From Amoebophrya sp. A120 (taxonomy: Eukaryota; Protista; Dinoflagellata): a DNA stretch of 64,000 bases. Below the pieces are notes generated by a model. It was given only the letters and a program-made list of their open reading frames with translations, had not been told where the DNA came from and did no database searches. Positions 1 through 64,000 of the stretch are shown one piece after another. The first letter of the stretch is position 1, and the number at the start of each line of letters is the position of its first letter. The stretch covers positions 853,643-917,642 of the forward strand of contig CAJINV010000001.1 in assembly GCA_905178155.1 (NCBI GenBank), in the 5' to 3' direction. The translations under genes were made by a program, and so were the position numbers.

Positions 1-1313
1 GAATCACCTGGAGAACGAAGGTGGTACAACTGATAGCTTTGTTTTTGACTTCCAGGAGCCAGCTAGTGCCATTCACTTGTACCTCTGTAGTACACGACCT
101 TAACGCAGCATAATTCCTCAGCACAGCTGCCACATGCGAACATTTTGTCAATAGCTACGACGATGGCAACACTCTTCTATCTATTGTGAATTTAAAGTTA
201 ATACCTCTTTCCCAAGTTTCGGAAAATCGGTTGCGCCGCCCTCTTCAACGTCGGTCATGAACAAGTGCAGTATGGAAGTGCCAGAATCGAAATTGACAAA
301 ATCGAAATGATTTGTCATGCATAAAATGGATTCGAGTTCGAACCCAGTTTCTAAGTGGCGCATGACAAATTCTGGTAGTGCTGCCCAAATCCAGTGCGTA
401 ATGCTGTTTAGGCAAAGAAGGCTGATTCTCTCATGCTGCTTTAGCAGCTCGAAATCTAACCCCAAACAGACTCACAATCGGCCTCACTTGCCTGCTCTGC
501 AACACACGTATTTCGGGTCATGCATTTTATGCATCACAAATTTGTCGATTTTGTCAAATTCGATCCTGACAGTTCCATATGCAGGGTGGCGATCAGGTTG
601 TTGGGTTTCCCCGGGACCACGTACTTGTTCCACCAGTCCGTGTGAATCGGGTGCCCGTTACCCGGAGAATACTGCCGAACACGGGTGGTGCCTGTAGTAG
701 GATTTGTGGTTTATCGTCCTTACGTCATAATTTTTTTGCTCTTTGAATCTGATCTTGATCCCTTGCAACTACAGCACCGATGTGCGATGCTAGGTCAGAA
801 CAAGCACCGTATCAAAAAGCGATGCAAATTCATCACATCGTGTCAAGTTGAACTAGTACCCGGCATGTGATTGTCCAAGTCCAGCAGTGCGTGTTTTCGC
901 AGCTCCACTTTGCGCAGCAGCGGGTGCGCGGTGACTTCCAGCTCCGTGACGCGGCCCGTGACCGACCCCCCGTGCGAGACGTCGAGCGCCGGCGTGGCTG
1001 CCTGCATGATGGCGTCCATCTCCGCATCGGAGGCAAAGTTGTCGATGTAGAACACCCGGGCGTCCTCGTCCAGCACCACTTTCCCCTTTTCGGCGGCGGC
1101 ATTCGCCTCTTGCTTCGCTTGCTCCACTTCGTCCCGCCCCACGTACAGCGGGCCGTTCTGGTACTTCTGCCCCAGGGGCCAGCCCTGGGCGCGGACCCCG
1201 TCGATTTCGAGTAATTCGTCCGATTTCCTCTTCATGTTCGCCTCGTTCTTCTCCCGCTTCTGCATCTCGCGCCGGTTGCAGTGTAGAGAGGAAAACGATT
1301 TTTTTGCTATCAT
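1..1313 (-). CDS. Prolyl 4-hydroxylase-like 2OG-Fe(II) oxygenase (3' partial, spliced)
   Basis: Exon RVFYIDNFASDAEMD. After GT-AG intron 692-859 and removal of element 271-579 plus one DR it reads RQYSPGNGHPIHTDWW...IATLHLFMTDVEEGGATDFPKLG (HxD and DVEEGG.T.FP motifs). A further GT-AG intron is likely at 8-204. Confidence 0.85.
271..579. mobile_element. Introner-like TIR element, family A
   Basis: Long imperfect TIR TATGGAAGTGCCAGAATCGAAATTGACAAAATCG / CGATTTTGTCAAATTCGATCCTGACAGTTCCATA; DR TGCAG at 266-270 and 580-584; removal restores the frame. Confidence 0.92.
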
Positions 1314-1441
1314 CTTTTCGTTTTGGTGTCAGTATCTATTTTGCCGCGATCATACTAGTTCAAGGACGGCTCTGGTGGTTGCGGTATGATTTTTGTGGAA
1401 CAAACGCAAGCGCTTTGATTACTCTTCACACATCTGCACCA

Positions 1442-3547: not shown

Positions 3548-4488
3548 TGTTTTAGATTTTCTCGTCGGAAACGAGGATGGTGACCTCCTGGTGAAAAAGA
3601 GTTTTCCGTCTGATGACCCCGCGTCGCTCGCGGAAGCTGTGGGTTTGATCGGGCGCTTGTTACGGACAACAGCCGACGTGCTGCAGCTTGACGGATGTGT
3701 CGCCCTGTCCAGCAGCATGACAAAGCAATGCGCCGTGTGTCACACGAGTCGCAATATGCCAGTCGCACCAGCAGCGCCGGGCGGGTGAATAGAACTGCAG
3801 CAAAGAGAAAACCGAAAGATCTTCGCCCGGAAACAAAAAAATGGCGACAGACGTGCAGGAGAGACGATGGACAATCTTGGGCTCGTCAGCGCACTTTCTC
3901 TAGTACGCTATGGTGTGCTGATGGTTCTTGAAGCTTCTCGGTATCTACTGACTGTGTGTAGATTGTCCTATACAAACAGACTACACTCGTGGATTTCTGT
4001 CACTTAATGGTTTCTCTCACGCGGCTACTTTCTCTCACTGATTCTCCTCTTCTAAGTTGTATTACGGATGTTGTACAATAACAATAAATTGAAGATCATC
4101 ATGGCACGGGAGTGTCGATCTGGATGGCAGTCCGCTGACGTAATTATACAGGTGCTACAGGCCTTCCGCCTCCGCGGAGCAAAATGGGACCCATCAATTC
4201 TTTCCCTATCTTTACTGGCTCCACACCTTCTTCTGAACACAGAACAACACTCACAGCTTGCTCACACTAAAGTAGCAGCAACCACTCCAGCCTTCCCAGG
4301 AGCTTCTTCCTTTTTTGGTTTTGAACGCGAAGGCACTACTTCTAAAAGAGACGATCCACTAAACCGCACATCTCCGTGAGTTTTATGATGTCAATCTTGC
4401 AGGAGGTTTGTTGTAGTCAAACCACACCTGCCACGACCCGGTGCTAGGATTTTGACATGGCAGATTCAACTGACTCTCCACGACCAGC

Positions 4489-6401: not shown

Positions 6402-6751
6402 CAGAGAGTGTAGTTTAGACAGGACGACTCTCGTCCGCTATTAAAAGGTAATGTACGCTGCAAGGCAAGGTACTTAGAAGACACCGAAATCGCCGTCCCG
6501 ACCCCATATTCGGGAGTAAGTAAATCTAAGAGACGGCCCAAAGAGAGAACAAATGCTGTATCTTCAGATTTTGATATTCCAAGCACTGCTGCAGAGCGCA
6601 CTACAGTTGTCTGTCCGGGCATTCGACCTGCACCTGGAACTCAGTTTCAAAAAACCAATGTCAGTAGTACACAGTTCCACTTGTGTGTCCTAGTCTTACT
6701 TACAGTGGAAATTAACTGCCGTTGGTTCGATGCTGCTTTTCTGTGCCAATT

Positions 6752-7425: not shown

Positions 7426-7428
7426 TTC

Positions 7429-8727: not shown

Positions 8728-9904
8728 TGGTAACCAAATGCGTGCGCGAAAATCTAACCAGCGCGAAAGCCTAACCAGCCGCGCGGCGAAAGCGCGGNNN
8801 NNNNNNNNNNNNNNNNNNNNNNNNNNNNNNNNNNNNNNNNNNNNNNNNNNNNNNNNNNNNNNNNNNNNNNNNNNNNNNNNNNNNNNNNNNNNNNNNNNNN
8901 NNNNNNNNNNNNNNNNNNNNNNNNNNNNNNNNNNNNNNNNNNNNNNNNNNNNNNNNNNNNNNNNNNNNNNNNNNNNNNNNNNNNNNNNNNNNNNNNNNNN
9001 NNNNNNNNNNNNNNNNNNNNNNNNNNNNNNNNNNNNNNNNNNNNNNNNNNNNNNNNNNNNNNNNNNNNNNNNNNNNNNNNNNNNNNNNNNNNNNNNNNNN
9101 NNNNNNNNNNNNNNNNNNNNNNNNNNNNNNNNNNNNNNNNNNNNNNNNNNNNNNNNNNNNNNNNNNNNNNNNNNNNNNNNNNNNNNNNNNNNNNNNNNNN
9201 NNNNNNNNNNNNNNNNNNNNNNNNNNNNNNNNNNNNNNNNNNNNNNNNNNNNNNNNNNNNNNNNNNNNNNNNNNNNNNNNNNNNNNNNNNNNNNNNNNNN
9301 NNNNNNNNNNNNNNNNNNNNNNNNNNNNNNNNNNNNNNNNNNNNNNNNNNNNNNNNNNNNNNNNNNNNNNNNNNNNNNNNNNNNNNNNNNNNNNNNNNNN
9401 NNNNNNNNNNNNNNNNNNNNNNNNNNNNNNNNNNNNNNNNNNNNNNNNNNNNNNNNNNNNNNNNNNNNNNNNNNNNNNNNNNNNNNNNNNNNNNNNNNNN
9501 NNNNNNNNNNNNNNNNNNNNNNNNNNNNNNNNNNNNNNNNNNNNNNNNNNNNNNNNNNNNNNNNNNNNNNNNNNNNNNNNNNNNNNNNNNNNNNNNNNNN
9601 NNNNNNNNNNNNNNNNNNNNNNNNNNNNNNNNNNNNNNNNNNNNNNNNNNNNNNNNNNNNNNNNNNNNNNNNNNNNNNNNNNNNNNNNNNNNNNNNNNNN
9701 NNNNNNNNNNNNNNNNNNNNNNNNNNNNNNNNNNNNNNNNNCATTTCCCTGACCTTCACGCCTCCCGGCGGTTGCCCTATATGGTAACGGCAACTGCCTT
9801 CGCGCTGCGTTTGCTAAGCAATATCGCAAGCGCGCAGAGCGCGCGCGCCGGCTTCGTGGGCCGGCGCGCGCTCTGCGCGCGCGCGCGCACGCATTTGGTT
9901 ACCA
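8728..9904. mobile_element. TIR element spanning the assembly gap
   Basis: Perfect 21-bp inverted repeat TGGTAACCAAATGCGTGCGCG (8728-8748) / 9884-9904; GC-rich hairpin near 9830-9880; interior mostly N. Confidence 0.65.
8798..9741. other. Assembly gap
   Basis: Run of N. Confidence 1.
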
Positions 9905-12493: not shown

Positions 12494-15411
12494 TTAGGGG
12501 GCACGGTGGCACGTTTTATCCGCATCGGTAAACTTCCACGACCGGCCGTCGTATCAAATGCAAACATGTCTGGGTCTGGAAGAGTGCGAGACTTGTCATG
12601 CAGTTTTTACCTGACCCACATCTTCCTCTGGCATGCATGCCCTGGCATCACAGATTTCGAGCAGGTACCCCAATTCCACCTAATCCGCATGACAAATCCG
12701 CTCTTTCGGTATAACAAGAAGTGGGGCCTTTTCCTGGCGACGCATGACAGATTTTCTCATGATGTTGAATTCGCATCACAAATTCGGATCCTTCCAGACC
12801 CAAACATGTTTGCAATGCATACGTCGATGACTTGTACCACTTTCGTTTCGTCCTTTCCCCAAGAAACGAACGCCTCGTCCATCGTCATGGAAAATTTCCA
12901 TGACGATGGAAAGTTTCCATCGCTATGCGTTCCCACGAACCGCTCCTCCAGCAGGGTAGCAAGGGTATACTTTACCCGGGAGGACGGGTGGTTGGGATCC
13001 ATGCCCAAGACCGTGTGCGCGATATGGAAGTGTCAGGTTTGAAATCGTCAAAGTTGAAATAATTTGTCATGCATAAAACGGATACCACTTAGACCTACAG
13101 TTTGTAGTCGGCGCATGACAAATTTTCCCGGTCCTGTAAGCGAGTCTGTCATGTGGTTTAGGGCAAAAGAGCTGCCTTCTGTCATGCTAGTCAGCAGCCC
13201 AACTTTTGACCCTTACCAGGACTACAATCTGCCTCCCGTGCGTCCTCTGCAATAGAGTCACTTTTTGTATCGCATCTTATGCATGGCAAATCATTTCAAC
13301 TTTGACGATTTCAATCCTGACACATCCATACGCGATGCAATCCAGGTAGAAATGGCTGTGCTTCGGGTGCTGCATCATTAACTGGCTCTGGCGCATGTGC
13401 AGTATGACTTGCTCAAACGTTACAAACTCAACCGTTACAATAGAGTCCGGGATTTGATGTCTTGCATAATGAGCATGACAGACTCGCAGAGCGTTCCACT
13501 TTCTGCAATACAAATTTCGCCAGAGTGTACTATAGTGCGACTTGGAGCTCCGGAAGAACTTGTCATGCGCTACTTTGTGGGAAGAGGCTAGATCATGCAC
13601 GACTTCTTGCGTCACGGATTTCCATATTCTATTGCAACGTTTGAGATTGCAACACCTGAGCAGGTTATATGCAGCTGGAACAGGTTCTTGATTTCGGCCA
13701 GCTCGTGGACGAAACAGCAGTCATCGTTCCAGCCCGCGTTCAGGCGGGGATGCGCCGCATCCTTCCACGTCTGATCCGCCGCGTTGGTCGACTGGGTACC
13801 GGGAAACCGGGAAGTCTCCACCCAGTTGACCTTGTAACCCCCAGCGCTGGGGGAGAACAAAGTATGCTCTTCGATAAAATTCGGCACTCGCGAATTGCGA
13901 CAGATCTTGTTCGTCCAAAAGGGACACCGGGCAGCTAAAAAGTAGTCGATTTCCGACTGGTCGTACTTACTCTGCATGACGAACATCGGCGACTCAAGCA
14001 GGTCGCCGAAATACTGGAGGTGCAAACACTTCTTTTTGTCGTCGGCAAACTTCTCCAGGCATTTTTCGTTCAAAGCTGGGTATCCGTTGACCGCGTCCAT
14101 CAGCCGCTCCATCCCGCGACCAAAGGCGTTTTCATTATTTCCGTCGCCAAACGTGGCCGGTGTCTGAACGAAGAATCCAGACTGCGAAGCACCGCGCACA
14201 ACGAGCTTTTTGTGTTCGACGCTGACCTCGGGATTTTGATGAGCGGCGGTCCACATCTTTTGCAGCATGGCGTTTGCTCGGTCAACCGCGTAGAATGTAG
14301 CCAGGCCTCCGGCGGAATGCCCGTACAAGATCACGCGCGCCGCGTTGCCGCTTTCGGCTCCGAGATAGTACTTGTTTGGGACTGATAGGTCCTGGGGCGG
14401 CTCGGTCTCGCCAATGCGCACAATCGGCGGCGCAAAAAAACGGTCCGCGAGTTCCGCCAGGACGCTGTCAAGAATGCGTTTGCCATGAAAGTGCATCGTA
14501 GTGCCATCGGCGGCCGTTACCGGTTCCTTCAGATCCCCAGTGAACACCGTTCCGTCGCAGTAAGGCACGTACACATAAAAAAACGGATCCGCCCACGAAT
14601 CCTTGAACGCGTAGCGCGTGTGGTCCTTCCTCTCGACTGTTTCCATCGTTTTCGTTTTACGGTCGAAGTGCTCCCACGTCGCCGGCACCGCGCTGCCGTA
14701 TCCCGTCTCCCCAGTCTTCCACGTTTTGCGCGCGCGCTCTGCGCAGTCGGTCAATACGTCACCGCCCGAGTCACCGCACCAGCCTCCCCCCTCCAGCTCG
14801 ATCAACAAGCCGTTCGCAAGTTTGTTGGCAAGCTCCTTCTCATCCTCTACGACCTCGGTAAAGTAGCCCGCGGGGTCTCCGTTGAGGCAGCGCGGCGTCT
14901 CTCCGCCTTCGAAGCCGATTTTGGTTCCGGTCTCCTGCGAAATCGTGTGGTATTGCAAAGGCGCGCCCTTGTACCCCGGCCTCTTCTCGGTGAACGAGGC
15001 TGGAGCTGGTGCTCCACCCGTAGCCTCAGTGGCCTCCAGTGCCGAGTGCATATAATTACCCATGATGGTCATCTCTCCTGCAGCGCCGTTTCTAGAAGAC
15101 GCAGCTCCAGCAGGATCGCGTTTTCTACCTTCTGCGATCGTGAAAGAGCTCGACGCAGGCGCGCCCGAGGAGGAACCGACAACATGATCGCCGGCCCCAG
15201 TCATTCTGGCTGCATCAGAATCCCCGTCCACCTCCAAGGACGACGACAGAAACGCTTCTCCTGAGCGTTTGTTCGTTATACCGCCCTGGTTCATGCTCAG
15301 CGCCTCCGCGTGATGCAGGAAAAGCAATGCGCCGCGGCATAACAATGCTCCATTTATTTTGGTCGCACGACTGCTCCCAAGGGTTGATGCGGCTGTCTTC
15401 GGCATTTTCAA
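12494..15411 (-). CDS. Pectinacetylesterase/Notum-family esterase
   Basis: CLNGDPAGY, LEGGGWC, YVPYCDG, GHSAGG and SKYDQ motifs. Removing three elements gives FYLDCIAHTVLG (likely catalytic His) and VIDGRSWKFTDADKTCHRAP*. Confidence 0.9.
12552..12821. mobile_element. Introner-like element, family B
   Basis: TIR TATCAAATGCAAACATGTCTGGGTCTGGAAG; DR CGTCG; junction VIDG in frame. Confidence 0.92.
13023..13330. mobile_element. Introner-like element, family A
   Basis: TIR TATGGAAGTGTCAGG; DR CGCGA; junction CIA|HTV in frame. Confidence 0.92.
13403..13669. mobile_element. Introner-like element, family C
   Basis: TIR TATGACTTGCTCAAACGTTACAAACTC / GAGATTGCAACACCTGAGCAGGTTATA; DR TGCAG; junction QLH|MRQ. 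Confidence 0.88.
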
Positions 15412-16108: not shown

Positions 16109-19100
16109 TCACATGGACACGACGGCACCATCTCGATTTCCGCCCCAGTGTGCCGCTTTCAGTGCGAGATCCAACTTCTGCGACCACTTTTGCATCTCTG
16201 TTTCCACCGCTGCATGTCTTGCATCTTCTACTACAGCCTGCGTATCCACCACCTCGGGCGCAGGAACTCCTGCAGTGAGTCGCTTCACGGACGCACGGAG
16301 CGTGCGAAGGCAGGCACGGAACCATTTTTCTATGGCGTTCTCAAACGTTACATTCTCAACTGTTACATAATTTGTCATGCAAAAACGCTATCACTATTCA
16401 CACAGCCAAGCCTTCTTCGCAAGACAACTTCTCGACGCGCTAAATAGCACTATAATCCGTCCCAAATCTGTAATGCAAAAGGCGCAATCTCCCTCCTTTC
16501 ACTTTTGCCACTCTAGCATTGCAAATTCATGTAACAGTTGAGAATGTAACAGTTGAGAACGCCATATTTTCACATCCACGGTTCGAGGAGAGTCCTGCAT
16601 GATCGACACCTGACAGCAATACGGCGTCTTCATGATCAAGGGCAAGCTCGCCAGCATTCTTCTGCGTGGACCGGACGTAGTCGCGGATGCGAGACGCGGG
16701 AGATGAGGGCGTGGTTTGTGATGAACCTGCACCTACAACTTCCTCCGCACACGCCCCGAGCGGGTCTCCATCAATACTGTTCTTATCAGCTCCCTGGTTG
16801 AATACAGTTGGCTCCTCGTCGCCCGCTTCTACTTCTGATGCAAAGGTCGTACTTGTACTTCTATTGCTAGCGGTAGCGGTTTTATTCGCGCTTTTCATGC
16901 TCTCCATTTGATGTTGTTCCCGCAGCAGCCGGCAGAGGCCCTTCCACTCCGGAGTTCGCTGCAACTGTGCCAACAACGCGAGGAGAAACGGCTGCGAAAA
17001 CAAGGAGCACTCGAAGAAGGTTTTGGAGATCACACGAATGTGGGCTGCGCACAGGTCCAGAGGCGAAGGTGGAGTTGTAACTGAGTCTTCAGCATCATGA
17101 TCTGCTCGACCAGGTAAACAACTGTCGTTTTTGACGACAATGGCCGCGACATGCATCAGTATCTCCTCATGACGGTTTAGGTTTTGCTCGATTTGTTCCG
17201 GCGATAATTCGGTCGCTGGTTGAAATTTATCGCCGCGTGATGTTTTATTCCCTGCTTTTAGAGTTGAAGATGTTCTCGCAGCACTATTGCTGCGGCCGAT
17301 GAAGTAGCAAATCTGGGACAGGTCCACTGCAGTGACGTGAAGATTTTCCAATGACCCCTCCTCGGGCCCCCCGTCCCTTCGTACCATGGTGCTAGAAGTG
17401 CAGTCTGAGTCTCCCTCTTCCTCTTCAGCAGCTGCACCGCGGCTGTCCTTTATTTCCCAAATTCGGAAGAAGTGTAGCAACGCGGAAGACATTTTCTCAC
17501 AGTAGACATCAAGCTGCTGGTGCCGATTTTCATCTAGCCCTTCGACTGAGAGACGACTCGATCCATCGCGTATTTTCGCGAGCGCGTAACAGGTCTGCGC
17601 AAGCGGCTGCAAAGTGTTGTAGCTCCAGCTGCCCCTTGCTTGAACGCCGGAGTCGTGGTCACCTTGCAGGTATCTTGCATCCTTATGCTCCTTCTCCCTG
17701 CTCGTGCCGCCGCTGCTGAGAAGTGCCAGTCTTCTTACAGCAGCAGCATTCCACGCGTCCAACGTATTGTCCAGGGCGGTGAATGCTGCGCGCGCCAGTC
17801 GCGTGATCGGCGCGTTATTTTCCTCCTGATGTGCTGGCATTGCAACTCCAACTTCACGACCCGTTTGATGAAGATGCGCTGCTGCAGTTTTCTGTAGTAT
17901 CTGCCTTGGAAATCTGTCCCAGTGCCACAACAAGAAATGCAACGCGTGTGCGACGTTGTCAGCGGTAGGTGTTTGTTCTTTTTCATGAGCACTCTCTTCT
18001 TGGCTCAACTTCCGCACCATTTCTTGTACGCATAGCTCTGCGATAGTGGATGTAGTATGCGGCGTGGCCCCAACACTTCTTCTACTCGCGGCTACCTCCC
18101 TGGAGGAGGAGATGTCATCAAAACCACTACCCCGCGTGAGAAACGGCTTCGCAAATTGTGCCACGTCCTGCATCGGAAAGGCCGCCAGGCGGGTCGGGGT
18201 CAGCCACTTGGTGAGTATTCTCGTCAGCCGGGAGTTTTCCGAGAACGGGTCTGGCTCGCTACGCCTCCGGCTCGTGGTCCCTATTCCTATACCTCCGTCG
18301 GAGAGCATTGATGTTCTCTGCTGCGTCGAACCAAAAGCTCCTGCTCCAGACGTCGACGAGGCTCCCAAACTCCTATCTTGTGCTTCTCCTACTCCTTCGC
18401 TTTTCTCCGCTCCCGTCTCCGGCCGTGCGACAGCGAGGTACGGATCTGGCTGTACCGAACTTTCGTTGTCACCGCCACAACTGTCGGAACTCATTGAATC
18501 GTTCCTCGGGTAGTGCTGACTGAGCCCTGCCAACGCGACCACGACGTCGCGGCGGCTGCGGCGGAAGAGGTTCTGCTCCAACTCGACCAGGACGGAGTGC
18601 CAAAAACTCGGATCCCGAACTCTCCCTGCCCTCTTTATCACGAGAGGTAGCGGCTCCTGAAAGAGCCGCTTGTCGGGCTTCGGCGGCCTTGTGTTCTTCT
18701 TCTTTGAATTAGTCGCGGCGCCGGGTTTATGTATTTCATTCCGAGAGCCTTTATATTGTCCGTTTGTAGCAGCTGTAGCGTATTTGGTCATTCTTAAATC
18801 ATCAGGTGAAGATGTTGGCGAGGACTCTTTGCTATTCATCCCTTTTGCCTTTTTCTTCTTTTTAGATTTCTTGGCGGGCCGTAACGGCTCTTCCGCGTCG
18901 AAAATTCCGCACTCTTCACCTTCAGCAACAGCAGCTGGTTGGCGATTTTTGTCTTCATCGCGTCGTCGTCCAGACTCCTTATTCGAGGGCACTCGGCTGC
19001 GCGATGACGTAGCTGCACCATTCCCGCTTCTTACAGTTGCGCATGCACGAAAGGCATCTGCATTTTCACAATTGAAATTGTGAGCGTCGTAGCGGTAGCC

Positions 19101-20024: not shown

Positions 20025-23000
20025 TCACGCAGGACCAGCAGGCCCGCCGCCACTGCCTCTCGTCAACATTTGCGTCATCTCAATGTCAACCTCTCCTTCT
20101 GTCCCTCGAGACATCAGAAGTCGCTCCCGAGATTCCTCGTTACGGCTGGCGCTTTTCACGCGTTTTTCTTTTTTCTCCTTCTTGCTCTTCCGGTGGTCCT
20201 CGTTCTTCGCGTCCGCCTGTTCAACGACGTCTTCCGCACTTTGCTTTGTGCCTCGACTCAGCAGCATGTTGTGCGCTTGTTCTCCCTCTTGCGGCCTTGT
20301 GTAGTTCTTTGATCTTCCAACTATTCCACCACCCGTCTTTTTGAAAGCGCTTGATCTCACTGTCACCGGAGGTGCAGGTGCCAAGCCGGTACTAAAGCTG
20401 ACCTGCTTCGAAAAAGCCGCTCGTTGCCCGGAGGAGGCCAGTTGTAGTACCTCCTCCCGGTCATCTTCGACACCTCGCAAATGATCTTCCTCCTCGCGGC
20501 CCCCTGGTCCCGCTGGCGAGGTTCCGCCCCCGCCCAAAGGTTTGCTTATGGTGCCTGTGCGCTCCAGAAGTGACCTGCTACTGGCCGCTGTAGTCACAGC
20601 ACCAGTCGCGCGGCCTAGCATTGCGGTTTGCTGAAAGCGCGGCATTACCGTTTCCCGTTCTTCGTCTAGTTCATCCATCTCCGTCGTCGGCCTTCGTCGG
20701 TTCTCCGGATTCACCGTCCCTCCAAATCGCATCTTGGCGGGCATAGGAGAGTGATCGTCGTCCAAATGATGTTGAAAATCATTCCGCTCCGCTGCAGCAT
20801 CTGCATTTCTTTGTAGGTGCAGTTCCTCGGCCGTGTTTGATGTTCGGAAGTCGTGCCGAAACAACTCACTTTGCATGCGTGCGCTGTTCTGCTGATTTCT
20901 CCGGTGCGCCAGAACTTTTCGCAAGTCTCCAATCTCCTGTTTCGTTTTCGCCCGATACAGCTCGATATCGCGCTTCGCGCGGTCCAAATCCCGCCGGACC
21001 TCCAGCTCCTCGGGCTCCGCGGGTATCATGACGTGAATGTATAGGAAAAACGCCATGCACAGCATGGCGAGCATGAGCACGTAGTTACTGAAAATCCCGC
21101 CCACGTTCAGCCGCGTGTATAAATGCGCCCAGTTGAAGGCGATAAACAGCAAGCTGGACCCGGTGGTGAGCAGGAGAAAGGACCCGACAAAATTCGTCGC
21201 GTCGTCCTCCACGAGATTTCGGTACACCCGCCGACACCCGTGCGACACGCGCCACGAGACCGTCCGACACATCACCCACAGGTGGATCCACGCGAGGGGC
21301 GCGATCAGGGGCACGACCGGAAAGAGGAAGGTGAGGAAGCACAGATTCACCAAAATCTCCAAATACTCCGTGTACAGATTCAACTTCGGGCCCTGCAGCT
21401 CGTGCGAGAGGTAGTAGTTGTGCAGGACCCGGTCCCGCAGCGACAAGTAGCTGTCGCCCCCGGACGGCGCACTCGCGGACCGCTTCGCGAGGGACTCCTT
21501 GGTGGTCGCGATTTCGTAGGGGCGCTCCTTCACGACGCGCCGGTCCGCCTGCCGGGAGAACTCCAGTTGCGGGTCGTAGTCCACAACTTGGTGCTTCCGC
21601 ACGGTGAAGAAGAAGGAGGGCAGAGTATCATTTGTAAAAACGTCCCCACCTCCCCAGAGTTGTAATGCAAATCTGCATGCTGAACATGTTTCTCATGCGG
21701 AGACCCATGTGAAGCAGTCTCTCTTGGTGTTTTGCGATCCATCTGTGATGCCCGCATCCGCATGGTATGCTAAATCTGTGATGCTGCTTCGCTAGCTGAA
21801 GACGACCACATTGCGCGCCCAGCTTTCTCATGCGCAACAGCCAAAGCTGGTTGGTTTGTGTAGCAGACTTGCCATCTTGATTCTGCGGTGGGGACGTTCT
21901 TGCTCACCATACAGCGACAGCGTCGTCCGTCGGGCCTTGTACAGCGTCCACAGGTACGGTACGAGAATTAACAGGCAAGGGTTCATGAACAACGCGCGCA
22001 GCAGAATGTGCAGGATGCAGTAGCTGACCGCGCGCTGCTGCTCGTTCACGGCGATGAGCAGGTACAGGGGGAGCGCGAGGTTGCCCGCTGCGTCCAACAC
22101 GGCCTCCTTCAAAGCCAAGGAGACGTTGTACTGGTCGCGCAGGATGTGCCCCTCCAATTTCGTCAGGAGTTTCCCGATCACGCAGAAAATCGGCCGCAGC
22201 AGCACCTGGAAGCCGAGGATGTAGACCAAACTCGGGATGTTCACGAACACCTGAAAACGGATGATACTCGTGCCGATCGCCGCCTGCACCTTCTCGTCGG
22301 TGAAGGCCAGGTGCTCAAAGTCGAGAAACAGCTGCAGCATGCGCTGCAGAAAGGACGCCGACACCACCAGCATCAGCGCCAAAACGATAAAAACCGCTGC
22401 GTACCGACTGGCGGAGATGCCGCCCTGGGCTTCCAGATTCCGCTATTACAATGAAAAATGCCCCCTCCCCATATCAAAAAGGAAATCTGTGATGCAGATT
22501 TGTGCTCACAGATCAGCTTTGTGATGCTAGAAGGCAAAAGATGCGGACTGCAGTGCTGCCTAGCTTGGGAAAGCCTTGCAGCTCCCGGATGACAGGAGGC
22601 AGCTGGAAGTGTTAAACAGCATGACAGATTACCTGCAATTTAGGCCGTAGCTTCCTCGTCTCTTGGCCTTCTAGCAATACAAGTCGATTTGTGTACTCAA
22701 ATACAGCATCACAAATTCGCGCATCTTCCGTTTCCGATATGGGATGGGGGCTTTTTTCACTTTGATATCCGCTCCGTCAGCCGCAAACTCACCTCCATAA
22801 ACCGCGAGGTTTCGTGCCCGTAATCGAAGTCGATGGGTTTTCTCGGCAGGTGCGCGACGTTTTTGTTGCTGTTGAATAATACATCAACCGAGGGGGAAGA
22901 TGATGAAGTTCTTGCAATAGTACTATCTTCACGACCTCCTTCCGTAGTTTCGTCCATTCTTGTCATGATCGTCTTGTTGATGTTCCCATTTATTGTTTGA

Positions 23001-36434: not shown

Positions 36435-37587
36435 TCACCTGCAACAAGGATCACCATGACCCCTAGTAGACCTAACCGTGCTATTTCGCGCACACCAGGC
36501 GACCACAGATATTCGTGTGAAAGGGGAGGTCGACGCATCAACAGCTGTTGGTACTTCATTGTCCACGCCTGCTACCCGTAGGTCTGGTACGCCATGCTCC
36601 AGCACTTTGTTCACAACCGTATCGAAAATAAGCACGTCGCCGTTGTTTTGCAACAAGTTCAAATTGAACAGATCTTGATTGTTGTGCAAGGCACTTCTAC
36701 CAGTGGTCACTCCAGAACTACTTCGCAACGGGCGGAACGCAACGTCCCGTGCGGCGCCAAAGGTGGCGGCAATAGTGATCTCCTCCTGGATTCCCGTCGG
36801 CTCGTGCACACAGTGCGAGTCCTGGTGGAAGGGCTTGTAGTCACTGTCCTTGTAAAAATTCACGCGTTTTTCCAGCACTCGGACGTCAATATCCCAAAGA
36901 AAAAAGCTGGCAGGTCATATTTGTAATGCGAAAATAAATACACAAGAAAATCTGCATTGCATATCCGAAGCAGCATGCTATGGGGCCGCCCATGGCAAGT
37001 CTTTCATTTCTGTGTATTTATTTTTGCATTACAAATATGCCCTGCCAGCTTTTTTCTGTGGGATAGTCAAAGCGCCTTTCCCAGTCGCGGAATAAAGCTT
37101 CAAGCATCTCCATCGCAGCGGGTTTCGACCTGTTATCCGCGGATTTACTGTTCTCGAGCTTGTCTAAATCCAGCTTGTGATGGCAGCTCCACGGGATAAC
37201 AGGATTGCCTTCAGAAATTCTTGATTCTGTCTGCGCCGAAACGAGCAAGTCAAAACAGTCCCGGGCGTCAGCGTCTTCGTAGTACCCGGGAAGCAGAATG
37301 ATTTCACCCAAACCGATTGGCCACGACGAAACGCTTTCGACGGTATCCTGATGATCGGGAGATGAGCTACAAGGCTTCGGCCTACTTCTGTCGCACCTCC
37401 TCAGCTGCTCCCTGTGTATGACGCGCAAACGCAACTGCGGCGGTTGCTTTTTTTCGTTCCACCAAGCCCAACAGCTTTTGCAGAAGTACTTGTCCCGCCA
37501 AGACGCCCCGTCTGTTGTCTCCGCGGGACACCAGGCGCATTTTTGGACCGGTGGCTGGATTCTTGTGGGGGAAAATTGTTCTGGCAT
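36435..37587 (-). CDS. AlkB-like 2OG-Fe(II) dioxygenase with N-terminal CxxC...CxxC
   Basis: VNFY...FHQD...ATFGAARDVAF...GDVLIF...HGVP...RISVVAW; junction RFD|VRV after element removal. Confidence 0.85.
36890..37065. mobile_element. Introner-like element, family H (mostly hairpin)
   Basis: TIR over 50 bp, TATCCCAAAGAAAAAAGCTGGCAGGTCATATTTGTAATGC; DR GTCAA. Confidence 0.93.
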
Positions 37588-49347: not shown

Positions 49348-49600
49348 TATCAAATGCAAAAATGTCTGGGTCTGGAAGATTTTGAGATTTGTCATGCTTG
49401 TCTGGCATGACCAAAAAGTTTGTGATGTGTGTCCAAGAAGAGACCCTTTTGCCTGTCATGCAAAAACGCAGTCTGTCATGCGAAAAACGCAACACAAAGA
49501 AGCGCAGCTATTTCTCATGCTTGCCTGTGCATTACAGAGCATTCACTATTCCCAACGCAGCATTACAAGTTTCCAGACCCAGACATTTTTGCAATGCATA
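49348..49600. mobile_element. Introner-like element, family B, apparently in the 3'UTR
   Basis: TIR core AAAAATGTCTGGGTCTGGAA; DR GACTC; lies 8 nt after the predicted stop (49609-49611). Confidence 0.88.
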
Positions 49601-49608
49601 GACTCCTT

Positions 49609-50928
49609 CTACGACAGTGTCATCGCGGTTCTCGCAGCGGCCACCATAGCCAGCGCCCCCTTGGTCAACGAGTAGGCTTTATGGATTGCAAAAGTGTCTG
49701 GGTCTGGAAGATTCTAAACTTGTAATGCTGTCGCTGGATTCTAAAAAAATTTGTATTGCATGACCAGCAGCAAGGGGACTCCAGTGTGTGCTACGCGGAA
49801 AGGGCATTTCTCATGCGGTAGAGGCATCACAAAGCCCCCTAAAAATATGTGATGCTAGGGCATGCATCATAGATATCATGGGTCATTCAAAATATGCATG
49901 ACAAACCTGGCAATCATCCAGACCCAGACACTTTTGCAGTTCATAGGCTTGCTGCTGCTCGGTCTTCATCAGGGTGCTGGTTCGCAAATACTGGACCGCC
50001 GCCGTGCTGCCCACCGCCACCTGGGCTAGACCACTAGTCGACGCGACAAAAACCACCGGCGGACCGCAGATGGCCGCGGGCGACCCATTGGCGGCATCGA
50101 AGCTGGCGTGCTCCGAGTCGGCCCGCAGCCGCAGCCCCTGCGTCACTTTGCCGACTGTGATGGAGAGGTATGGAACAAAAGCGGAAAAACAAAAAAGCTC
50201 TCCATAATTGGGCCCCCAAACCCCTCATTCGCTGAAATGCTGCTGCTGTTGCTGCTCCTTCTGTGCAAAAAAAAATACTTAAACAAACGGTGCAGAGATT
50301 ACAGAACAATTCGCAGCGCAACTCAAGACACACGGGGTCGGGAAACAACGGAAGCAGCTTTATTCCTGTGCGCGGTTCATACCACGGACCGATCGGTGCC
50401 GGCGGCGACGTTGAAGAAATCGGCCAGGGTCGCCGGGCTGCTTGCCTCCAGGGCGACGGGCCCGGTTGCGTTCATGGTCGGGGTGTAGACGTTGGTGCCG
50501 TCCGCCTTAGTCGTTTCGGGATCGAGCCCGCCAAGGACCGCGTAAGTGCCGTCCGACTTCTGGTACTCCAGGAACATACTCTTCGTCAAAGCGGCGTCCG
50601 CATCCCCCACGTTTTTGATGGTGATGTATTTCACGTCCTGCGTCTGAGTGAACGAAATTCTGACCTCCTCGTCTGCGGGCGCAGAATCCGCATTTGCGTT
50701 CGGGTTGCCGAGAGCCGTGTAGCGGCTCTGGTAGTCGGTGGCATTCGTGATGGCGCAGGTCACGTTGTTTACTTCCGTGGGCTGCGTAACCGAGAACGCA
50801 TCCGCAGCCAACTGCTCCACCTCGGCGGCACTGCCTTGGCCCGCCACAAATACCGGGGAGGAGGAGAGCTGTCCGAATGTGAGCAGCTTTGCGGCGAGGG
50901 AAACGCACCGGAACTGCGACATCATCAT
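49609..50928 (-). CDS. Hypothetical secreted or surface protein
   Basis: Signal-like N-terminus; 183-aa ORF joined to 49883-50146 by a putative intron 50168-50382; last exon follows element 49680-49945. Confidence 0.55.
49680..49945. mobile_element. Introner-like element, family B
   Basis: TIR core TGCAAAAGTGTCTGGGTCTGGA; DR GGCTT. Confidence 0.92.
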
Positions 50929-56449: not shown

Positions 56450-59400
56450 CTACCTGTCCTCATCTGATTTGTCGCGCTGTCCTACAGCATTTTTTCCCCC
56501 AGAAGCGTCCACCGCGCTTTTTTGTTTATCCAGTTCATCTTCCTGCTCGCCCTCGGCAACTTCTACACCCTCCCCCTCCCCCTGGTTCGCAGCTTCTTCC
56601 CCCTCCACACCACCCTCCGCCGCGCCGGTAAACATTTCCGAAAGACTTGCGGAGATACGCTGGAACAGTCCCTGTCCACCCGCCGCCTTTTTACGCATTT
56701 CGCGCTCCCGCACGCCCTGCACACTCCACATGCAGCAGAACTGCACCTTGCAGCGCTCGAGCTCGAACTGCTTGTCCACCATGGGCCGACCGGTGTCCGG
56801 ATCTGGCACAATCAATGGCTGGATGTTCAGAGTGTGCAGCTTGTAATTGCGGTGGAGCAACCCGGGCGTTTCCGCGTAGCTCAGCGTCGGATCCGCGATC
56901 GAAGGATCGTTCTCGATGGACAGTGGTCTCATACTATCGCCGCTTTTGTCCTTTGATGATGATCCACGACCACCGAACAAGCCCTTCATTAATCTCCTTC
57001 CCACGCCGGTCCTCACCCGCACGCCATTGTCGTATTCCAACAACTCCGCCGGGCCCTCGCAGTAGTCCTTGAGACTAAATTCCACCGTGCCGATCGGCGT
57101 GTCGCTGACGCTGAAGACGCCATTCGCGTCCAGCAGAACCAGCTCGCACTTCAGCTCCTGAAACCGCAACTCCATTTCCCGCACCTCGATCTCCACCACT
57201 TCGCTCCACTCCGGGAACTCCGTGTCGTCGAGCGCGCGGGTGTTTCCGATGGCGCGCTTGTTCGCAAACCGGAGTAGCTGGAAATCATCGGTGTCCAGCA
57301 CGTCCGCGGACGGGGAGATGTAGTGAAAGGTCTCCGAGTTGCCCGGCGGCGCGGGATCGCCGGGGACCAGCGGCTGTTGTTCTGTGCCAGAAGTATCTTC
57401 CTTTTTCTCCGGATCGCGCAGCCGTAGCCGCACTTGTATATATGGGTCGCTGAGCGTGAGCACGTCCGCCTGGGGCACGTTGCTGGCGCCGCGGAGGTAA
57501 ACGGCGAACACAAAGCATTTTTCCTCGTCGTCGCCGAGGAGGTCCCCAACCGTCTCGTACCGACTGCCAAGGTCATTCGACTCGAGCTTCGTGGACCCCG
57601 GAACGCGGCGCCGCTCCGCGCGGCGCTCGTTAAACGCCTGCGCCACCGCGCCTGACTGTGTATCTGCTTCGTTTTGGCCTTGTTGTGCTTGCGCTTGCGC
57701 CCCCGTTGAACTAGAACTCGAACTTCCCCCCGCTGCCCCAGCGGCCGTGCTTTGCGGCGCACCACCCGCTTTCCGAAGCCCTGAGGGGACGGCGTCCGCA
57801 AAGCCGGCCGGCGACTCGCCCGCAACGACCTGTGGGCGATCGTCAATCCAATCCGGCATGCCGACCACTCCCTGACGGAACAGCTTCTGTAAGATCTGGC
57901 TGGGTCGCTCGCGCCCCTGGTTCGCGTCCCGCACCAGCACCGGCTGCAGCCGGCGCAGCTCCGGCAGTACCTCGTCTTTCAGCCGCAAGGCGTCGATCGC
58001 TTTTTCGTACTGACCGCACAGCTATCAAATGTAAAAATGTCTGGGTCTGGAAGAATGCCAGTTTGTCATGCTTGTCTGGCATGACTCTTAAATCTGTCAT
58101 GCACATTACGAAAGAGCCCCACTTTTCTGTCATGCAGAAACGTAGTTTGTCATGCAGAATAGGCAACACCTAGAAGCTCAGAAACTTGTCATGCTGAGCC
58201 AGCAATTGTGGCCTCCTCATGATATGCCACACAGCATCACAAGTTTCCAGACCCAGACACTTTTACATTTGATAACAGCTTCTGGAAGATCTCCAGATAG
58301 TAGGCGTGGTTGGTCACGTCGGACAGCCGGTCCCGCAGTCTCACGTTCTCGTTCGCGAGCACCCTTGCGTATGCATTGCAAAAAATATGTCTGGGTCTGC
58401 AAGATTCTGAGACCTGTCATGCACGTTTTGCACGAGCCATGAAGATGTCTGTGATGCACGCCCTAGCACCACAGTATTTTTGAGGGTTTCTTGATGCCTA
58501 TTCCGCATGAGAAACAAAGGCCCTCTCCGCGCAGAAAAAATTGCATATCCAGCCTTTGCTGCTCATGCAATACAGATTTTTTCGGAATCGCAATGCAGCA
58601 TCACAAGTTGCATTCTTCCAGACCGAGACATATTTGCACTGGATAGTGCGGCCCCGGACCCCAAATCCAGTTTCGCCAGCGGGTCGGGCATATCTAGTGT
58701 AAAAGTGTCTGGGTCTGGAAGGATGCAACTTGTGATGCGACCTTTGGACTCTACATAAAATCTGTATTGCATGAACAGCAAAAGGTCCAACTTTTGCTAC
58801 GCTAAGAGGACATTTCTCATGCGGTATGAGCATCAGAAAGCCCTCGCAGAATCTCTGATGCTAGGGCATGCATCACAAACCTCAAGGGTCATGCAAAATC
58901 AGCATGTTGACAAACTCCTGCATTGTTCCAGACCCAGACATTTTTACATTTGATAGGGCAGAAACGTGCACACCTCCGGCCGAAACAGCCGGTTGTTTTT
59001 CACGCTGGCTTCGTGCTCCTGAAACCGCTCGCAGTTCAGGAACCGCGCCGGCCCGCGGACGTGCAGTAAGGGGATGAGTTTCGTCTTCTTAGCCTGCTGG
59101 TCGACCTTGTTAGTACTCTTCTCGTGACCGCCGGTTTTGTCAACAAACTGCGTGACCTCCTCTGGCTGGAGCGGGCGCTCCCCGGAGGTCAGCAATAGCT
59201 CCACGTGGTCCCGATGGCACGCGGCGAACTCCGCCATCTCGTTCTGGACGGCGCCGAGAAACGCGTCCTTCCGCTGCTCCAGCACCCGGTAGGGCACGTC
59301 GAATTCGAAGCGGCCCAGCGTGCGGATCTGGCCCCCGGAGCTCACGTCCGCCTCCGCCAGAATGTATGAGAGTGAACAACAACTCCACCTCTCGTCTATT

Positions 59401-62400
59401 TGTATAGCATAAGCAGCAACAGAAGCAATGCCACAAAGGTAGCTTCTGCATGACAAACCCGCACATAGATTGTAGTCCTGTTTGGGCGACGTCCAAAACT
59501 TGCCATGCGAAGAGTGTTTAAAGGCAAGAGGTGGCCTCGGTATTTTGCATGACAAATGAGGGAGAGGCGGAGCTGTGCACTCTCCTAGAATGCCGTCGGG
59601 GGCGAGAAACATGTCCCGGTTCAACTGCTCCATCTGCGCCTTTCTCAAATGTAAAACTGTCTGGGTCTGGAAGAGTGCGCGGTTTGTCATGCAGCTTTTC
59701 CATGTCCCATGAAGCCTGGAATGCAGGACTTAGCATGACAGATTCTGCGCAATCTCTCTCATGCCTATCCTGCATGAGAAACTCCCTCCCGACTTGGTAA
59801 AAACTGGACGACTCTTGGTAATCACGCAACGCAGATTTTTGCATGCTTCAGATTTAGCATGACAAGTTGCATTCTTCCAGACCCAGACACTTTTACATAT
59901 CATAGCCTTCTGCAGCTCCCAGAACCGCTTCTCGACCGGATCCCAGGAACTGAGCATGCGATCGTGCTCCTTGCCCATGTTCACCAGGTCCTTCTGGTCG
60001 AACTTCGGCCCAGCGGTGCGGCGCTGCTGTTGAACAAAAGAACCAGATGCACTTTGATGCTGTTGTTCCTTTTGCTCGTGAAGCATTTTGCGCTGCAGTG
60101 TGCCAAGCACGACGAGGTCGGCGTGCAGCTGCGACAGGAGCTTGTGCGTCTGCACATGGGGGCCGGACTCCTCGAAGTTGTGATTCATCTCGGCTTTGTT
60201 GTGCTTTTTCGGCCGCGCCAATATGTCGCGCAACGCGGTGTCCTCGATGTGCCGGTTCTGATCCTGCTCTGCCACCAGGTTCGTCACACGTTGGACCATG
60301 GAAATGTCGTCCTTCTTTTTCCCAGCAGGACGATTGCCTCCAGAAGTAATTATCTCGGGAACAACCTCCTCCTTCTTGCCGCCACTCGACCCTCGCGCCA
60401 CGTAGTTGAGTCGCTGCCGGTCGGGGTCGTTCAACGCCTCCACTTCCGCCACCAGTTCCTCTATTCTGAGTAAAAACGTCCCCATCCCTTAGTTGTAATG
60501 CTAATCCGCATGCTGGCAATGTTTCTCATGCGCATCCCCATGAGAAGCATTTTCTAGTCCTGTTTCGGAATTTGTCATGCTCCAATTATATAAATTCACA
60601 TTCCTGGCGCAATTCACCCAACGAGCGAAAGCGCGCGGAAACGATGATAATCGAAGGCAGTGCTGACGCGCGCTGCAGTCCTCGTCGCGGGACGCCCTGC
60701 GACGGTCACACTGGCGAGCAAGAAGAGAACCCGGCCGGCACAGCGAGCTACAAGTAGCAAGCCGCGCGAGCCAAGCTCTCAAACCCCACAGAGCCACGCC
60801 CCGGACGTGAAGGTGGGCCAAGCCGTGGAACACGACATGGCCCACCGAACATCTGGGGAGGCTTGCGGGGGGTGCCGCAGGGTATCTCGCAATGAAGCTG
60901 CAGCAGCTGGGTGGGAGGGCGGGGAAAAAACGCCGAGTCCAGGCAAGCCCGGACGAAGCGGAGATTCTAGATAGAGGACAGAGAACCAGCGGAAGCTGGT
61001 CGACATCGGGCAGCCAGCCCGACGTCGGAGTGTGCAACCCTCTTGCTTGATCATGTAAATTGATATAACTGCTACGCACGTTATATAAATTCACATTCCT
61101 GGCGCAATTCACCCAACGAGCGAAAGCGCGCGGAAACGATGATAATCGAAGGCAGTGCTGACGCGCGCTGCAGTCCTCGTCGCGGGACGCCCTGCGACGG
61201 TCACACTGGCGAGCAAGAAGAGAACCCGGCCGGCACAGCGAGCTACAAGTAGCAAGCCGCGCGAGCCAAGCTCTCAAACCCCACAGAGCCACGCCCCGGA
61301 CGTGAAGGTGGGCCAAGCCGTGGAACACGACATGGCCCACCGAACATCTGGGGAGGCTTGCGGGGGGTGCCGCAGGGTATCTCGCAATGAAGCTGCAGCA
61401 GCTGGGTGGGAGGGCGGGGAAAAAACGCCGAGTCCAGGCAAGCCCGGACGAAGCGGAGATTCTAGATAGAGGACAGAGAACCAGCGGAAGCTGGTCGACA
61501 TCGGGCAGCCAGCCCGACGTCGGAGTGTGCAACCCTCTTGCTTGATCATGTAAATTGATATAACTGCTACGCACGTTATATAAATTCACATTCCTGGCGC
61601 AATTCACCCAACGAGCGAAAGCGCGCGGAAACGATGATAATCGAAGGCAGTGCTGACGCGCGCTGCAGTCCTCGTCGCGGGACGCCCTGCGACGGTCACA
61701 CTGGCGAGCAAGAAGAGAACCCGGCCGGCACAGCGAGCTACAAGTAGCAAGCCGCGCGAGCCAAGCTCTCAAACCCCACAGAGCCACGCCCCGGACGTGA
61801 AGGTGGGCCAAGCCGTGGAACACGACATGGCCCACCGAACATCTGGGGAGGCTTGCGGGGGGTGCCGCAGGGTATCTCGCAATGAAGCTGCAGCAGCTGG
61901 GTGGGAGGGCGGGGAAAAAACGCCGAGTCCAGGCAAGCCCGGACGAAGCGGAGATTCTAGATAGAGGACAGAGAACCAGCGGAAGCTGGTCGACATCGGG
62001 CAGCCAGCCCGACGTCGGAGTGTGCAACCCTCTTGCTTGATCATGTAAATTGATATAACTGCTACGCACGTTATATAAATTCACATTCCTGGCGCAATTC
62101 ACCCAACGAGCGAAAGCGCGCGGAAACGATGATAATCGAAGGCAGTGCTGACGCGCGCTGCAGTCCTCGTCGCGGGACGCCCTGCGACGGTCACACTGGC
62201 GAGCAAGAAGAGAACCCGGCCGGCACAGCGAGCTACAAGTAGCAAGCCGCGCGAGCCAAGCTCTCAAACCCCACAGAGCCACGCCCCGGACGTGAAGGTG
62301 GGCCAAGCCGTGGAACACGACATGGCCCACCGAACATCTGGGGAGGCTTGCGGGGGGTGCCGCAGGGTATCTCGCAATGAAGCTGCAGCAGCTGGGTGGG

Positions 62401-64000
62401 AGGGCGGGGAAAAAACGCCGAGTCCAGGCAAGCCCGGACGAAGCGGAGATTCTAGATAGAGGACAGAGAACCAGCGGAAGCTGGTCGACATCGGGCAGCC
62501 AGCCCGACGTCGGAGTGTGCAACCCTCTTGCTTGATCATGTAAATTGATATAACTGCTACGCACGACATATATATTATATAAGGCAAACTTTGGGGCCGG
62601 AGAGGGTAGGGTAGAGGTTGGGGAGAGGTTCGGGAGAGGTAAAATAGAGGGTCGGAGAGGTAAAGTAGAGGGTCGGAGAAAATGAGAGGGTCGGGGAGAG
62701 GTAAAACGAGAGGGAAAATAGAGGTAAGGGAGAGGGTGCGTAGTATGTACGCCCTTAAAGCGCGCCTATACGCGCGCAGAGGTAGGGTAGAGGTTGGAGA
62801 GAGGTCAAATAGAGGATAGGGGAAGAGGGTGCAGAGGGTCGGAGAGGGTGCGCAGTATAGGGAGACCCTCTAGGCGACCCTCTACCGCGACCCTCTCCCG
62901 GGGCCTCTATTTTACCTCTCGGCCGACCCTCTCGGGACCTCCCCGACCCTCTCCCGGACCCTCTCCCGGACCCTCTCCGGGAACCTCTCCGACCCTCTCC
63001 CGGAACCTCTCAGAAGCTCTCTCCCCGACCCTCTCCCGGACCCTCTCCCGGACCCTCTCCCGGAACCTCTACCGGAACCGCCCTTGCAGTGCAGTTCGCC
63101 CGCCTGCGCGCACTACCTGTATCTTAAAGTAAGAATGCAACTAGGGCCCAAAAGTTAAGGTCTGCAAGTCTTTTGACTCCAGGCCAGGGCGGCTGTTCAA
63201 AGTGCATGCGCCGCTCTGCGTCCCCCTGGGGGGGCGCGGCGCCGCGCCTTAACGTAGGCGGCCACCTAGGGTGGCCGCAACTTCACACAACGCCCGCGCG
63301 CGGGCAACAGGTGCGGCGACTTTGTAGCGCAGTGAAAGTGGTTGTGACCAAAGTAGCGAAAGTGTTTCTGTGCCCGCTGTCTCTCGGCGCATAAGTAGCT
63401 AATAACTCTCGGCATGCACAGGCAAGCCTCGCGGCGTGCTCGCCGATTTAGCTTATTGCAGCGCGCTAGTTTTTTAAGGGCGTCTTTCGTGTTCAGGGTG
63501 CACATCTACAGCAAACTCCGCCCCTAAGAAAGGCCAAAAACCTCCGTTCCCAGGCGCTGCTGTTTTCGGAAGCAAAGTAGGAGCACAGGCCGCGGCGGTT
63601 TCGCTGCGGGTGTGCGTTGCGCTTTCTGGGCCAAAGCCGTCAGAGCGGCGCGGCCCCGCCTGCCTTTTTGGCTGTGTAGCGGCGCGCTACCCTTGGCACC
63701 GCCTTCCCCGTTGGAACACCTCCCCCGAACAGCCTCCCTCCCCGGCGGCCTCCGCCGGGGGGTGGCTGGTAAGAATGATATGCTAGATCTGTGATGCTGC
63801 TGGTGCTGGACCAGCTAAACAGCATTACACTACGAAGCAAAACCTGTCATGCGCAACAACCATAGCTGGCTGATTTGTGTAGCAGATTTCCCATCTTGAC
63901 TCTGGGGTGGGGACGTTCTTACACAGGATATCCTCCGCGGCGCCGTCACTCTCCTCGGACACCGCATATTCGTCGATGGGGTCTGGCTCGAAATCCGCAC
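56450..64000 (-). CDS. C2-domain protein (5' partial) with six introner introns
   Basis: VYLRGASNVPQADVLTLSDPYIQV...PEWSE...LLDANGVFSVSDTPIG. Continuous frame across GAAEE|LV, QKA|QM, DGI|LA, FLP|DP, AA|RV and KL|CG. Confidence 0.85.
58023..58274. mobile_element. Introner-like element, family B
   Basis: TIR TATCAAATGTAAAA.TGTCTGGGTCTGGAA; DR ACAGC. Confidence 0.94.
58370..58645. mobile_element. Introner-like element, family B
   Basis: Degenerate family B TIR; imperfect DR TTGCG/GTGCG. Confidence 0.88.
58691..58955. mobile_element. Introner-like element, family B
   Basis: TIR core TGTAAAA.TGTCTGGGTCTGGAA; DR GGGCA. Confidence 0.93.
59365..59587. mobile_element. Introner-like element, family G-related (degenerate)
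   Basis: TATGAGAGTG...CACTCTCCTA; DR GAATG. Confidence 0.8.
59643..59904. mobile_element. Introner-like element, family B (inverted homolog of 23421-23682)
   Basis: TIR with TCT in place of TAT at the left end; DR GCCTT. Confidence 0.92.
60586..62565. repeat. Tandem array, 4 x 495 bp
   Basis: Units start at 60586, 61081, 61576 and 62071 (TTATATAAATTCAC...); they appear identical. Confidence 0.97.
62598..63075. repeat. GAGAGGGT / ACCCTCTC inverted minisatellite (foldback)
   Basis: Purine-rich GAGAGG(G)T units to about 62860, followed by complementary ACCCTCTCCCGG units. Confidence 0.8.

Follow-up and report, generated by a model that had tools for sequence, protein, structure and literature searches.

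Introner elements have been described among the non-canonical introns of Amoebophrya sp. A120, a genome with 29,850 repeated introns (Farhat 2021, PMC7789003). In the accessible text of that paper their inverted repeats start with TAT followed by seven variable nt and at least three A, the flanking direct repeats (DRs) measure 3–5 nt (with a 5-bp example), the mean length is ~240 nt, and the elements have no dinucleotide signature, occur mixed with GT-AG introns and are supported by RNA sequencing. Gozashti 2025 lists A120 introner families with terminal inverted repeats (TIRs), of 150–350 bp and mostly with non-canonical ends, and the rows consulted, 32 of the 58 for A120, assign no superfamily (PMC12130899). 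Another Amoebophrya strain is reported to have canonical introns and U1 (PMC12005148), and the introners of Polarella and Symbiodinium use GT/GC/GA-AG (bioRxiv 2020.10.14.339549). For the nonconventional introns of Euglena, which have been reported as circles (PMC11282704), the cut is positioned by the distance to a paired motif and an origin from miniature inverted-repeat transposable elements has been proposed (PMC12501133). Our literature search, whose coverage mostly left aside subscription papers, returned no paper testing the removal mechanism in Amoebophrya. Here we analyse a 64,000-nt stretch of the A120 genome (contig CAJINV010000001.1, positions 853,643 to 917,642; henceforth referred to as the window, in which all coordinates are given and which carries the host reading frames on its minus strand), for which a preliminary description had claimed 23 TIR elements that act as precise introns with no GT-AG boundary.

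Results

Scanning the window for inverted ends with flanking direct repeats recovered all 23 claimed elements (Table 1; elements are named by their first position). A strict scan, which demanded exact TAT/ATA ends, an exact 5-bp DR and an arm match of at least 14/20, returned 19 elements in the window compared to 1 in total across 30 local shuffles. The four elements outside the strict scan are 59365 and 59643, which are the two with an altered terminal base already pointed out in the preliminary description, and 21626 and 58370, whose DRs carry a one-base mismatch that it had left unmentioned; the remaining 21 DRs are exact 5-bp repeats. Over the 46 arms the terminal bases are T in 46, A in 45 and T in 45, followed by seven variable bases and an A tract (33, 36, 39, 35 and 29 A at arm positions 11–15), and local alignment gives arm lengths of 37–68 nt. 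Twenty-two elements are 145–355 bp long, and the 3,469-bp element 60462–63930 belongs to the 280-bp family of 24890, with ~3.2 kb nested inside it. The predicted folds of the elements range from -70 to -175 kcal/mol. A subterminal motif (TGTNATGC/GCATNACA) occurs in 69 copies in the 5,961 nt of the 22 short elements, compared to 5 copies in the 53,626 nt outside. The window holds copies that are 67–92% identical and form repeated families; 23421 and 59643, which are 91.7% identical, lie in opposite orientation. Rfam searched at the gathering threshold gave no match in the window.

Since these elements match the published A120 introner elements (TAT, 7 nt, AAA; 5-bp DR), the intron class is already published and is not a discovery: the window set is like the described elements in inverted-repeat motif, DR, families and non-canonical removal, and we found nothing that separates them. 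The kinship with Amoebophrya introners to which the preliminary description had pointed is therefore closer than it claimed, the motif and a 5-bp DR being in print for A120 itself (PMC7789003). A GC content of about 52% and co-oriented genes in the window are likewise consistent with A120. Compared to Farhat 2021, we add the length of the arms (37–68 nt rather than 8–20), a strictly 5-bp target-site duplication (TSD), removal in both orientations and a limit on the cut register, where the paper leaves the border position unfixed; the TSD and orientation results may already stand in published figures or supplements. The A120 families of Gozashti 2025 are similar in being TIR DNA elements.

A coding repeat is present three times, once with element 32549 inside it, and the two remaining copies keep a single TCGTG (33839 and 34667). 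Because these paralogous sites are empty, the 5-bp repeat is an insertion scar. A scan of a second assembly (JACKZZ01) for the TIR pattern yielded 153 stretches in 145 loci (L001–L145; 760 kb), none of which has a gene overlap with the window, and 351 elements, of which the 151 with a clear open reading frame (ORF) were kept for frame-dependent counts and the others, with an unclear frame, were dropped; the comparison was made at the DNA level. Families are shared with the window at 73–97% identity. Among 57 JACKZZ01 pairs picked by TIR alone, 54 have an exact 5-bp DR and none has a longer one (6-bp included), and a one-base DR mismatch occurs in 43 of the 351 elements (about 12%). Two further observations were made on the 151 elements: the first DR base falls at codon position 3, 2 and 1 in 78, 40 and 33 cases, respectively (p 9e-6), and where a DR mismatch lies at position 1 in a clear ORF, it is synonymous in 5/5 cases.

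Removal of each element with 5 nt yields minus-strand ORFs of 759, 1010, 1674, 337 and 923 aa, and in an automatic frame test this removal ranked best for 17 of the 23 elements. Of the remaining six, some are at the edge of an ORF or of the window, and others are next to a GT-AG intron or belong to the weakly supported gene at 49348/49680. The number of coding insertions originally given, 22, is plausible because 49348 sits 3 nt past a predicted stop. Pfam matches were obtained for pectinacetylesterase, anoctamin and C2, which upholds the esterase label, and weakly for KH (E 0.017); P4H and AlkB, searched as separate exons, gave no Pfam match, and these two labels are based on motifs.

To establish what happens to the elements in transcripts we used two RNA-type runs of cDNA contigs (X3 and X6, two samples from one study) and one run of DNA-like contigs (X1), the kind of which is not on record. 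Two more of the eleven listed runs, the raw RNA runs X9 and X10, contributed 6 and 0 reads, respectively. Record 10 of X3 (6,184 nt, depth 25) skips seven elements with one DR each, together with the 203-nt GT-AG intron 27001–27203, bearing out the claim that ordinary introns occur in the same genes. Two of these skips appear as adjacent listed pieces and five were deduced around short exons of 41, 41 and 104 nt. An in-silico rebuild with element+5 removals is exactly 6,184 nt long and contains a 1,997-aa ORF, whereas the unspliced form offers at most 555 aa. X6 repeats five of the seven skips and has additional joints of 257, 228 and 267 nt that correspond to 58023, 59365 and 59643, and thus include both elements with altered ends. 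In all, exact loss of the element and one DR is seen in 10 of the 17 whole elements covered by transcript contigs, and precise removal without GT-AG, as first proposed from the DNA, is therefore observed in transcripts. No other junction for covered elements was found among the matches listed for X3 and X6.

In marked contrast, X1, which covers every bin, still contains the GT-AG intron, and at 13 junctions it continues from the flank into the element with a depth of 39–48, which equals that of unique DNA; 17,450 X1 contigs match 20 kb of the window and are heaped on the elements. Since the element-free form comes with ordinary splicing and is absent from the DNA-like run, removal acts at the RNA level. 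We hold it very probable that the window elements belong to the published A120 class and are removed at this level. The preliminary description had also entertained programmed DNA deletion, as for the internal eliminated sequences of ciliates, by which element-free genes would arise in the expressing stage. Although a transposase-derived excisase could read the TIR and DR geometry, and rare or stage-limited alleles are invisible in contigs, X1 retains the elements at single-copy depth, no element-free DNA form was encountered among its listed joints, and the element-free form arrives together with GT-AG splicing. Amoebophrya is not known to possess a separate germline nucleus; any DNA deletion would thus pass to the progeny, and the element would disappear. 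DNA deletion is thus unsupported, and we regard it as extremely improbable.

The same contigs bear on two ways in which an element-free sequence could arise with no excision at all. Junctions could be template switches of reverse transcriptase across the hairpin, with the element bypassed in the cell by, for example, ribosome hopping between matched codons. Direct repeats with secondary structure are a known source of false junctions (PMC4176328), the predicted folds are strong, the transcript evidence is all cDNA, and one whole codon fits in a 5-nt repeat in every frame. However, seven junctions are crossed by one unbranched contig, and the retained form must therefore be rare at each; elements with unpaired ends are skipped exactly too; and among 15 mismatched elements with a clear ORF, five of the eight DR mismatches inside a whole codon change the amino acid, which argues against hopping. 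We consider this explanation very unlikely. Alternatively, RNA polymerase II could jump from the first DR to the second over an extruded DNA hairpin, in which case the element would never be transcribed. By inference alone the geometry fits and a splice signal is unnecessary, but the one-base DR mismatches of JACKZZ01 (43/351) and the exact skipping of one such element in the window speak against a jump, as do element ends that, in the RNA-type runs, are attached to flanking sequence from different loci, for which DNA carry-over is a possible source. A polymerase jump appears highly improbable.

We next considered which signal marks the ends of the elements. When the junction was slid through the DR on the transcribed strand, GT-AG was obtained in none of the 23 window elements, in agreement with the preliminary description; 59643 allows GC-AG, as it had stated, and slides also allow GA-AG at 60462 and AT-AC at 59365. 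In the 151 JACKZZ01 elements slides gave GT-AG in 6, GC-AG in 3, GA-AG in 5 and AT-AC in 4. The elements also lack polarity. The near-copies 23421 and 59643 are both removed from transcripts despite their opposite orientation, related pairs among the 151 JACKZZ01 elements comprise 126 in the same and 97 in opposite orientation, and in this set the 5' and 3' arms are alike in composition and the flanks are without consensus. A 3' bias was absent among 174 elements for both the subterminal motif (34 vs 40) and the A/U tract (147 vs 150).

The mismatched DR of 21626 reports on the position of the cut. Both X3 and X6 keep CAGCG, which is the upstream DR copy on the transcribed strand, including position 2. 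At this site the 5' cut is therefore placed two or more bases inside the DR, and the intron ends with two bases of the variable DR; were this to apply generally, the 3' site would have no fixed dinucleotide. Similarity searches and exact look-ups for homologues that would fix the register returned none save one distant protein (P0002, ~40% identity), which has Gly at the residue that would be Asn or Ser depending on the DR copy kept at L036:10464, a weak hint of a cut after DR position 2. Arguments from the direction of mutation on the remaining DR mismatches conflict, and we draw no conclusion from them.

The U2/U5/U6 core of the spliceosome could remove the elements if the terminal stem, or an adaptor that binds it, replaced recognition by U1 and U2AF. 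In the accessible parts of the A120 report the set of spliceosomal proteins is almost complete and U1 is not detected (PMC7789003), the tunicate Fritillaria is described as handling non-canonical introns via a divergent U2AF and altered N6-methyladenosine of small nuclear RNA (PMC13326754), and the elements carry a U tract 11–15 nt from the end of the 3' arm in either orientation. Against this, a cut 2 or more nt inside the DR would leave the 3' site without a fixed dinucleotide, arms and motifs are without polarity, and the GCATNACA repeat has the branch-optimal A at N in only 5 of 523 cases. Furthermore, the confirmed ordinary intron 27001–27203 keeps a perfect GTAAGT, and U1-type recognition therefore probably still works. 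The candidates for ordinary introns (n=12, some of them false) are too few for a branch consensus. A spliceosomal core guided by the stem is thus a possibility to be taken seriously, though we doubt it.

Table 1. TIR elements of the window and the ordinary intron spliced alongside them
Feature	Position	Strand	DR	Remarks
TIR element	271–579		TGCAG	P4H-like gene (label from motif)
TIR element	12552–12821		CGTCG	Pectinacetylesterase-like gene; junction not among the matches listed
TIR element	13023–13330		CGCGA	Pectinacetylesterase-like gene; junction not among the matches listed
TIR element	13403–13669		TGCAG	Pectinacetylesterase-like gene; junction not among the matches listed
TIR element	16331–16566		TTTTC	1010-aa ORF; junction not among the matches listed
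TIR element	21626–21911		CAGAG/CAGCG	Anoctamin-like gene; X3 record 10 and X6 record 13 skip 21621–21911, CAGCG kept
TIR element	22444–22767		TCCGC	Anoctamin-like gene; 329-nt skip in X3 record 10
TIR element	23421–23682		CGAGG	Skip deduced from record coordinates, X3 and X6
TIR element, 145 bp	23728–23872		CTCCA	Skip deduced from record coordinates, X3 and X6
TIR element	24532–24843		CAGGC	Skip deduced, X3 and X6
TIR element	24890–25169		TGGTC	Skip deduced, X3 and X6
TIR element	26541–26895		TTGGA	Skip deduced, X3
Ordinary GT-AG intron, starts GTAAGT, 203 nt	27001–27203	-		Spliced out in X3 record 10 alongside elements
TIR element	31798–32114		GACGA	Directly after KH-like segment; junction not among the matches listed
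TIR element	32549–32865		TCGTG	Empty paralogous sites at 33839 and 34667
TIR element	36890–37065		GTCAA	337-aa ORF; AlkB label without Pfam confirmation
TIR element	49348–49600		GACTC	3 nt beyond predicted stop, likely 3' untranslated region
TIR element	49680–49945		GGCTT	Near end of weakly supported ORF
TIR element	58023–58274		ACAGC	C2-domain gene; 257-nt skip at X6 joint
TIR element	58370–58645		TTGCG/GTGCG	Mismatched DR; no X6 joint bridging element
TIR element	58691–58955		GGGCA	No X6 joint bridging element
TIR element, one end altered	59365–59587		GAATG	228-nt skip at X6 joint
TIR element, one end altered	59643–59904		GCCTT	267-nt skip at X6 joint
24890-family TIR element with ~3.2 kb nested DNA	60462–63930		TCCTC	4 x 495-bp identical tandem, CT-rich repeats

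A search for the mobilising enzyme gave no transposase-like match in the longest ORF of 60462–63930. A 754-aa repeat ORF in this element matched ORC_WH_C and, weakly, bL31_N, which we took as repeat noise. The long JACKZZ01 candidates for autonomous copies proved to be nested or chance pairs, five candidates of 457–1,104 bp contained no long transposase-like ORF when inspected by eye, and the TIR pattern had no match in viral contigs. In print, a transposase is stated not to have been found in A120 in the sections of Farhat 2021 at hand (PMC7789003), and A120 family 38 combines TIRs with Copia/Gypsy-like ORFs (PMC12130899); with such a family on record, the mobiliser is less of a blank than the preliminary description had supposed. 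Within the long element, 60586–62565 consists of four 495-bp tandem units that are 100% identical and may be recent or an assembly artefact, and L062 contains the 820 bp adjoining the tandem once more, at 84% and not within a detected TIR element.

The segment at 31700–32200 resembles the KH domain of the KHDC4/branch-point-binding-protein type (PF22675, E 0.017), and its gene, which itself holds four TIR elements, is possibly a splicing factor gene. Two additional TIR elements, at 32980–33769 and 33953–34597, end in GG...CC and are flanked by a 9-bp TSD; a copy at 92% is present in L056, and by these traits we take them to be Mutator-like. Scarless removal of both is predicted to leave an ORF of 581 aa in which three repeat units match, whereas splicing at their internal GT-AG sites would yield 589 aa and leave a footprint of 12 nt per element. 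A run of 944 N occupies 8798–9741.

Discussion

On balance, we think it slightly more likely than not that the window elements are non-autonomous TIR transposons and that a pathway separate from ordinary splice-site recognition cuts their RNA copy in both DRs, at a constant spacing from the terminal stem. An integrase-like DDE transposase acting in trans would bind the TIRs and the subterminal TGTNATGC repeats and insert the element, in one orientation or the other, at target cuts staggered by 5 bp. The gene is then broken unless the element and one DR copy go. In the transcript, the arms are predicted to fold into a stem of 40–65 bp that brings both DR copies together; the two cuts would share one register within these copies, 2 or more nt inside and determined by the distance from the stem, and the machinery that makes them would be apart from the U1/U2AF route serving the GT-AG introns of the same genes. 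For ten elements the transcript lacks exactly the element and one DR. On the machinery itself we lean towards a separate pathway, while giving a remodelled spliceosome considerable weight. The second, stem-guided pathway suggested in the preliminary description thus fits the symmetry and orientation data and shares the field with a spliceosomal rival.

Several points weigh against this account. The limit on the register comes from a single site (21626), no excision intermediate (lariat, circle or 2',3'-cyclic phosphate) or enzyme has been observed, and 83 of 89 spliceosomal proteins are reported as kept in A120 (PMC7789003). An excess of G.U among arm mismatches is absent (52 vs 58 in the window; 136 vs 136 in JACKZZ01), and pairing at positions 4 and 7 is confined to 87 and 61 of the 151 JACKZZ01 elements, respectively; for these two reasons the conserved ends may be a protein-read motif presented on the stem. 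With regard to transcripts, seven of the 17 covered elements are without a listed junction, six more (five outside the covered stretches, plus 60462–63930) are uncovered, and five of the seven skips in X3 record 10 rest on deduced record coordinates. The RNA status of the cDNA-based runs is a guess, which for X3 is backed by removal of the GT-AG intron. As for the DNA-like run, which may be the source of the assembly, only two of its 13 junctions satisfy a 31-letter bridging rule and the rest reach 25–29 nt into the repeat, and all 13 are among the joints listed (there are 435 more besides). Contigs also lose rare variants, and the JACKZZ01 counts come from genomic sequence alone.

A wider form of the proposal would be RNA excision, free of the spliceosome, of any inverted-repeat transposon together with one target copy, blind to junction, orientation and TSD length. 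Under it the 9-bp-TSD elements at 32980 and 33953 would also be removed scarless, possibly by a domesticated transposase or an endonuclease-ligase pair; we consider this wider form unlikely.

Among known systems, the Euglena introns (Nomura et al. 2025) offer a works-like analogy from an unrelated lineage, being alike in the lack of GT-AG, in paired ends and in coexistence with GT-AG introns. Their code N3CDG...CH'GN5-6|R was not found here: the window elements end in TAT...ATA with no flank consensus, have long arms and exact TSDs, and the JACKZZ01 set follows no purine rule after the 3' site. The introners of Aureococcus, Symbiodinium and Polarella, as far as the sources describe them, likewise create introns through TIR and TSD, some in both orientations, but in them GT/GC/GA and AG are supplied by the TIR or TSD, unlike in the window elements. 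TA..TA termini, which the window elements possess, are those of IS3EU/GingerRoot (TAYGG..CCRTA in rust fungi), a group with an integrase-like DDE enzyme and a TSD of usually 6 bp rather than the 5 bp found here (PMC10045372, PMC12730594), and kinship with it is a lead only.

The finding bears on how most introns of the Amoebophrya lineage are removed without a splice signal. The window offers test substrates: seven elements and a GT-AG intron in one transcript, an inverted near-identical pair and mismatched DRs that report the register, and in addition the 9-bp-TSD elements, for which scarless and GT-AG products differ by 12 nt. If the wider form of the proposal were true, a sequence-blind and scarless remover of introns would be the second such system beside that of Euglena, and it would explain how transposons could flood coding sequence at little cost.

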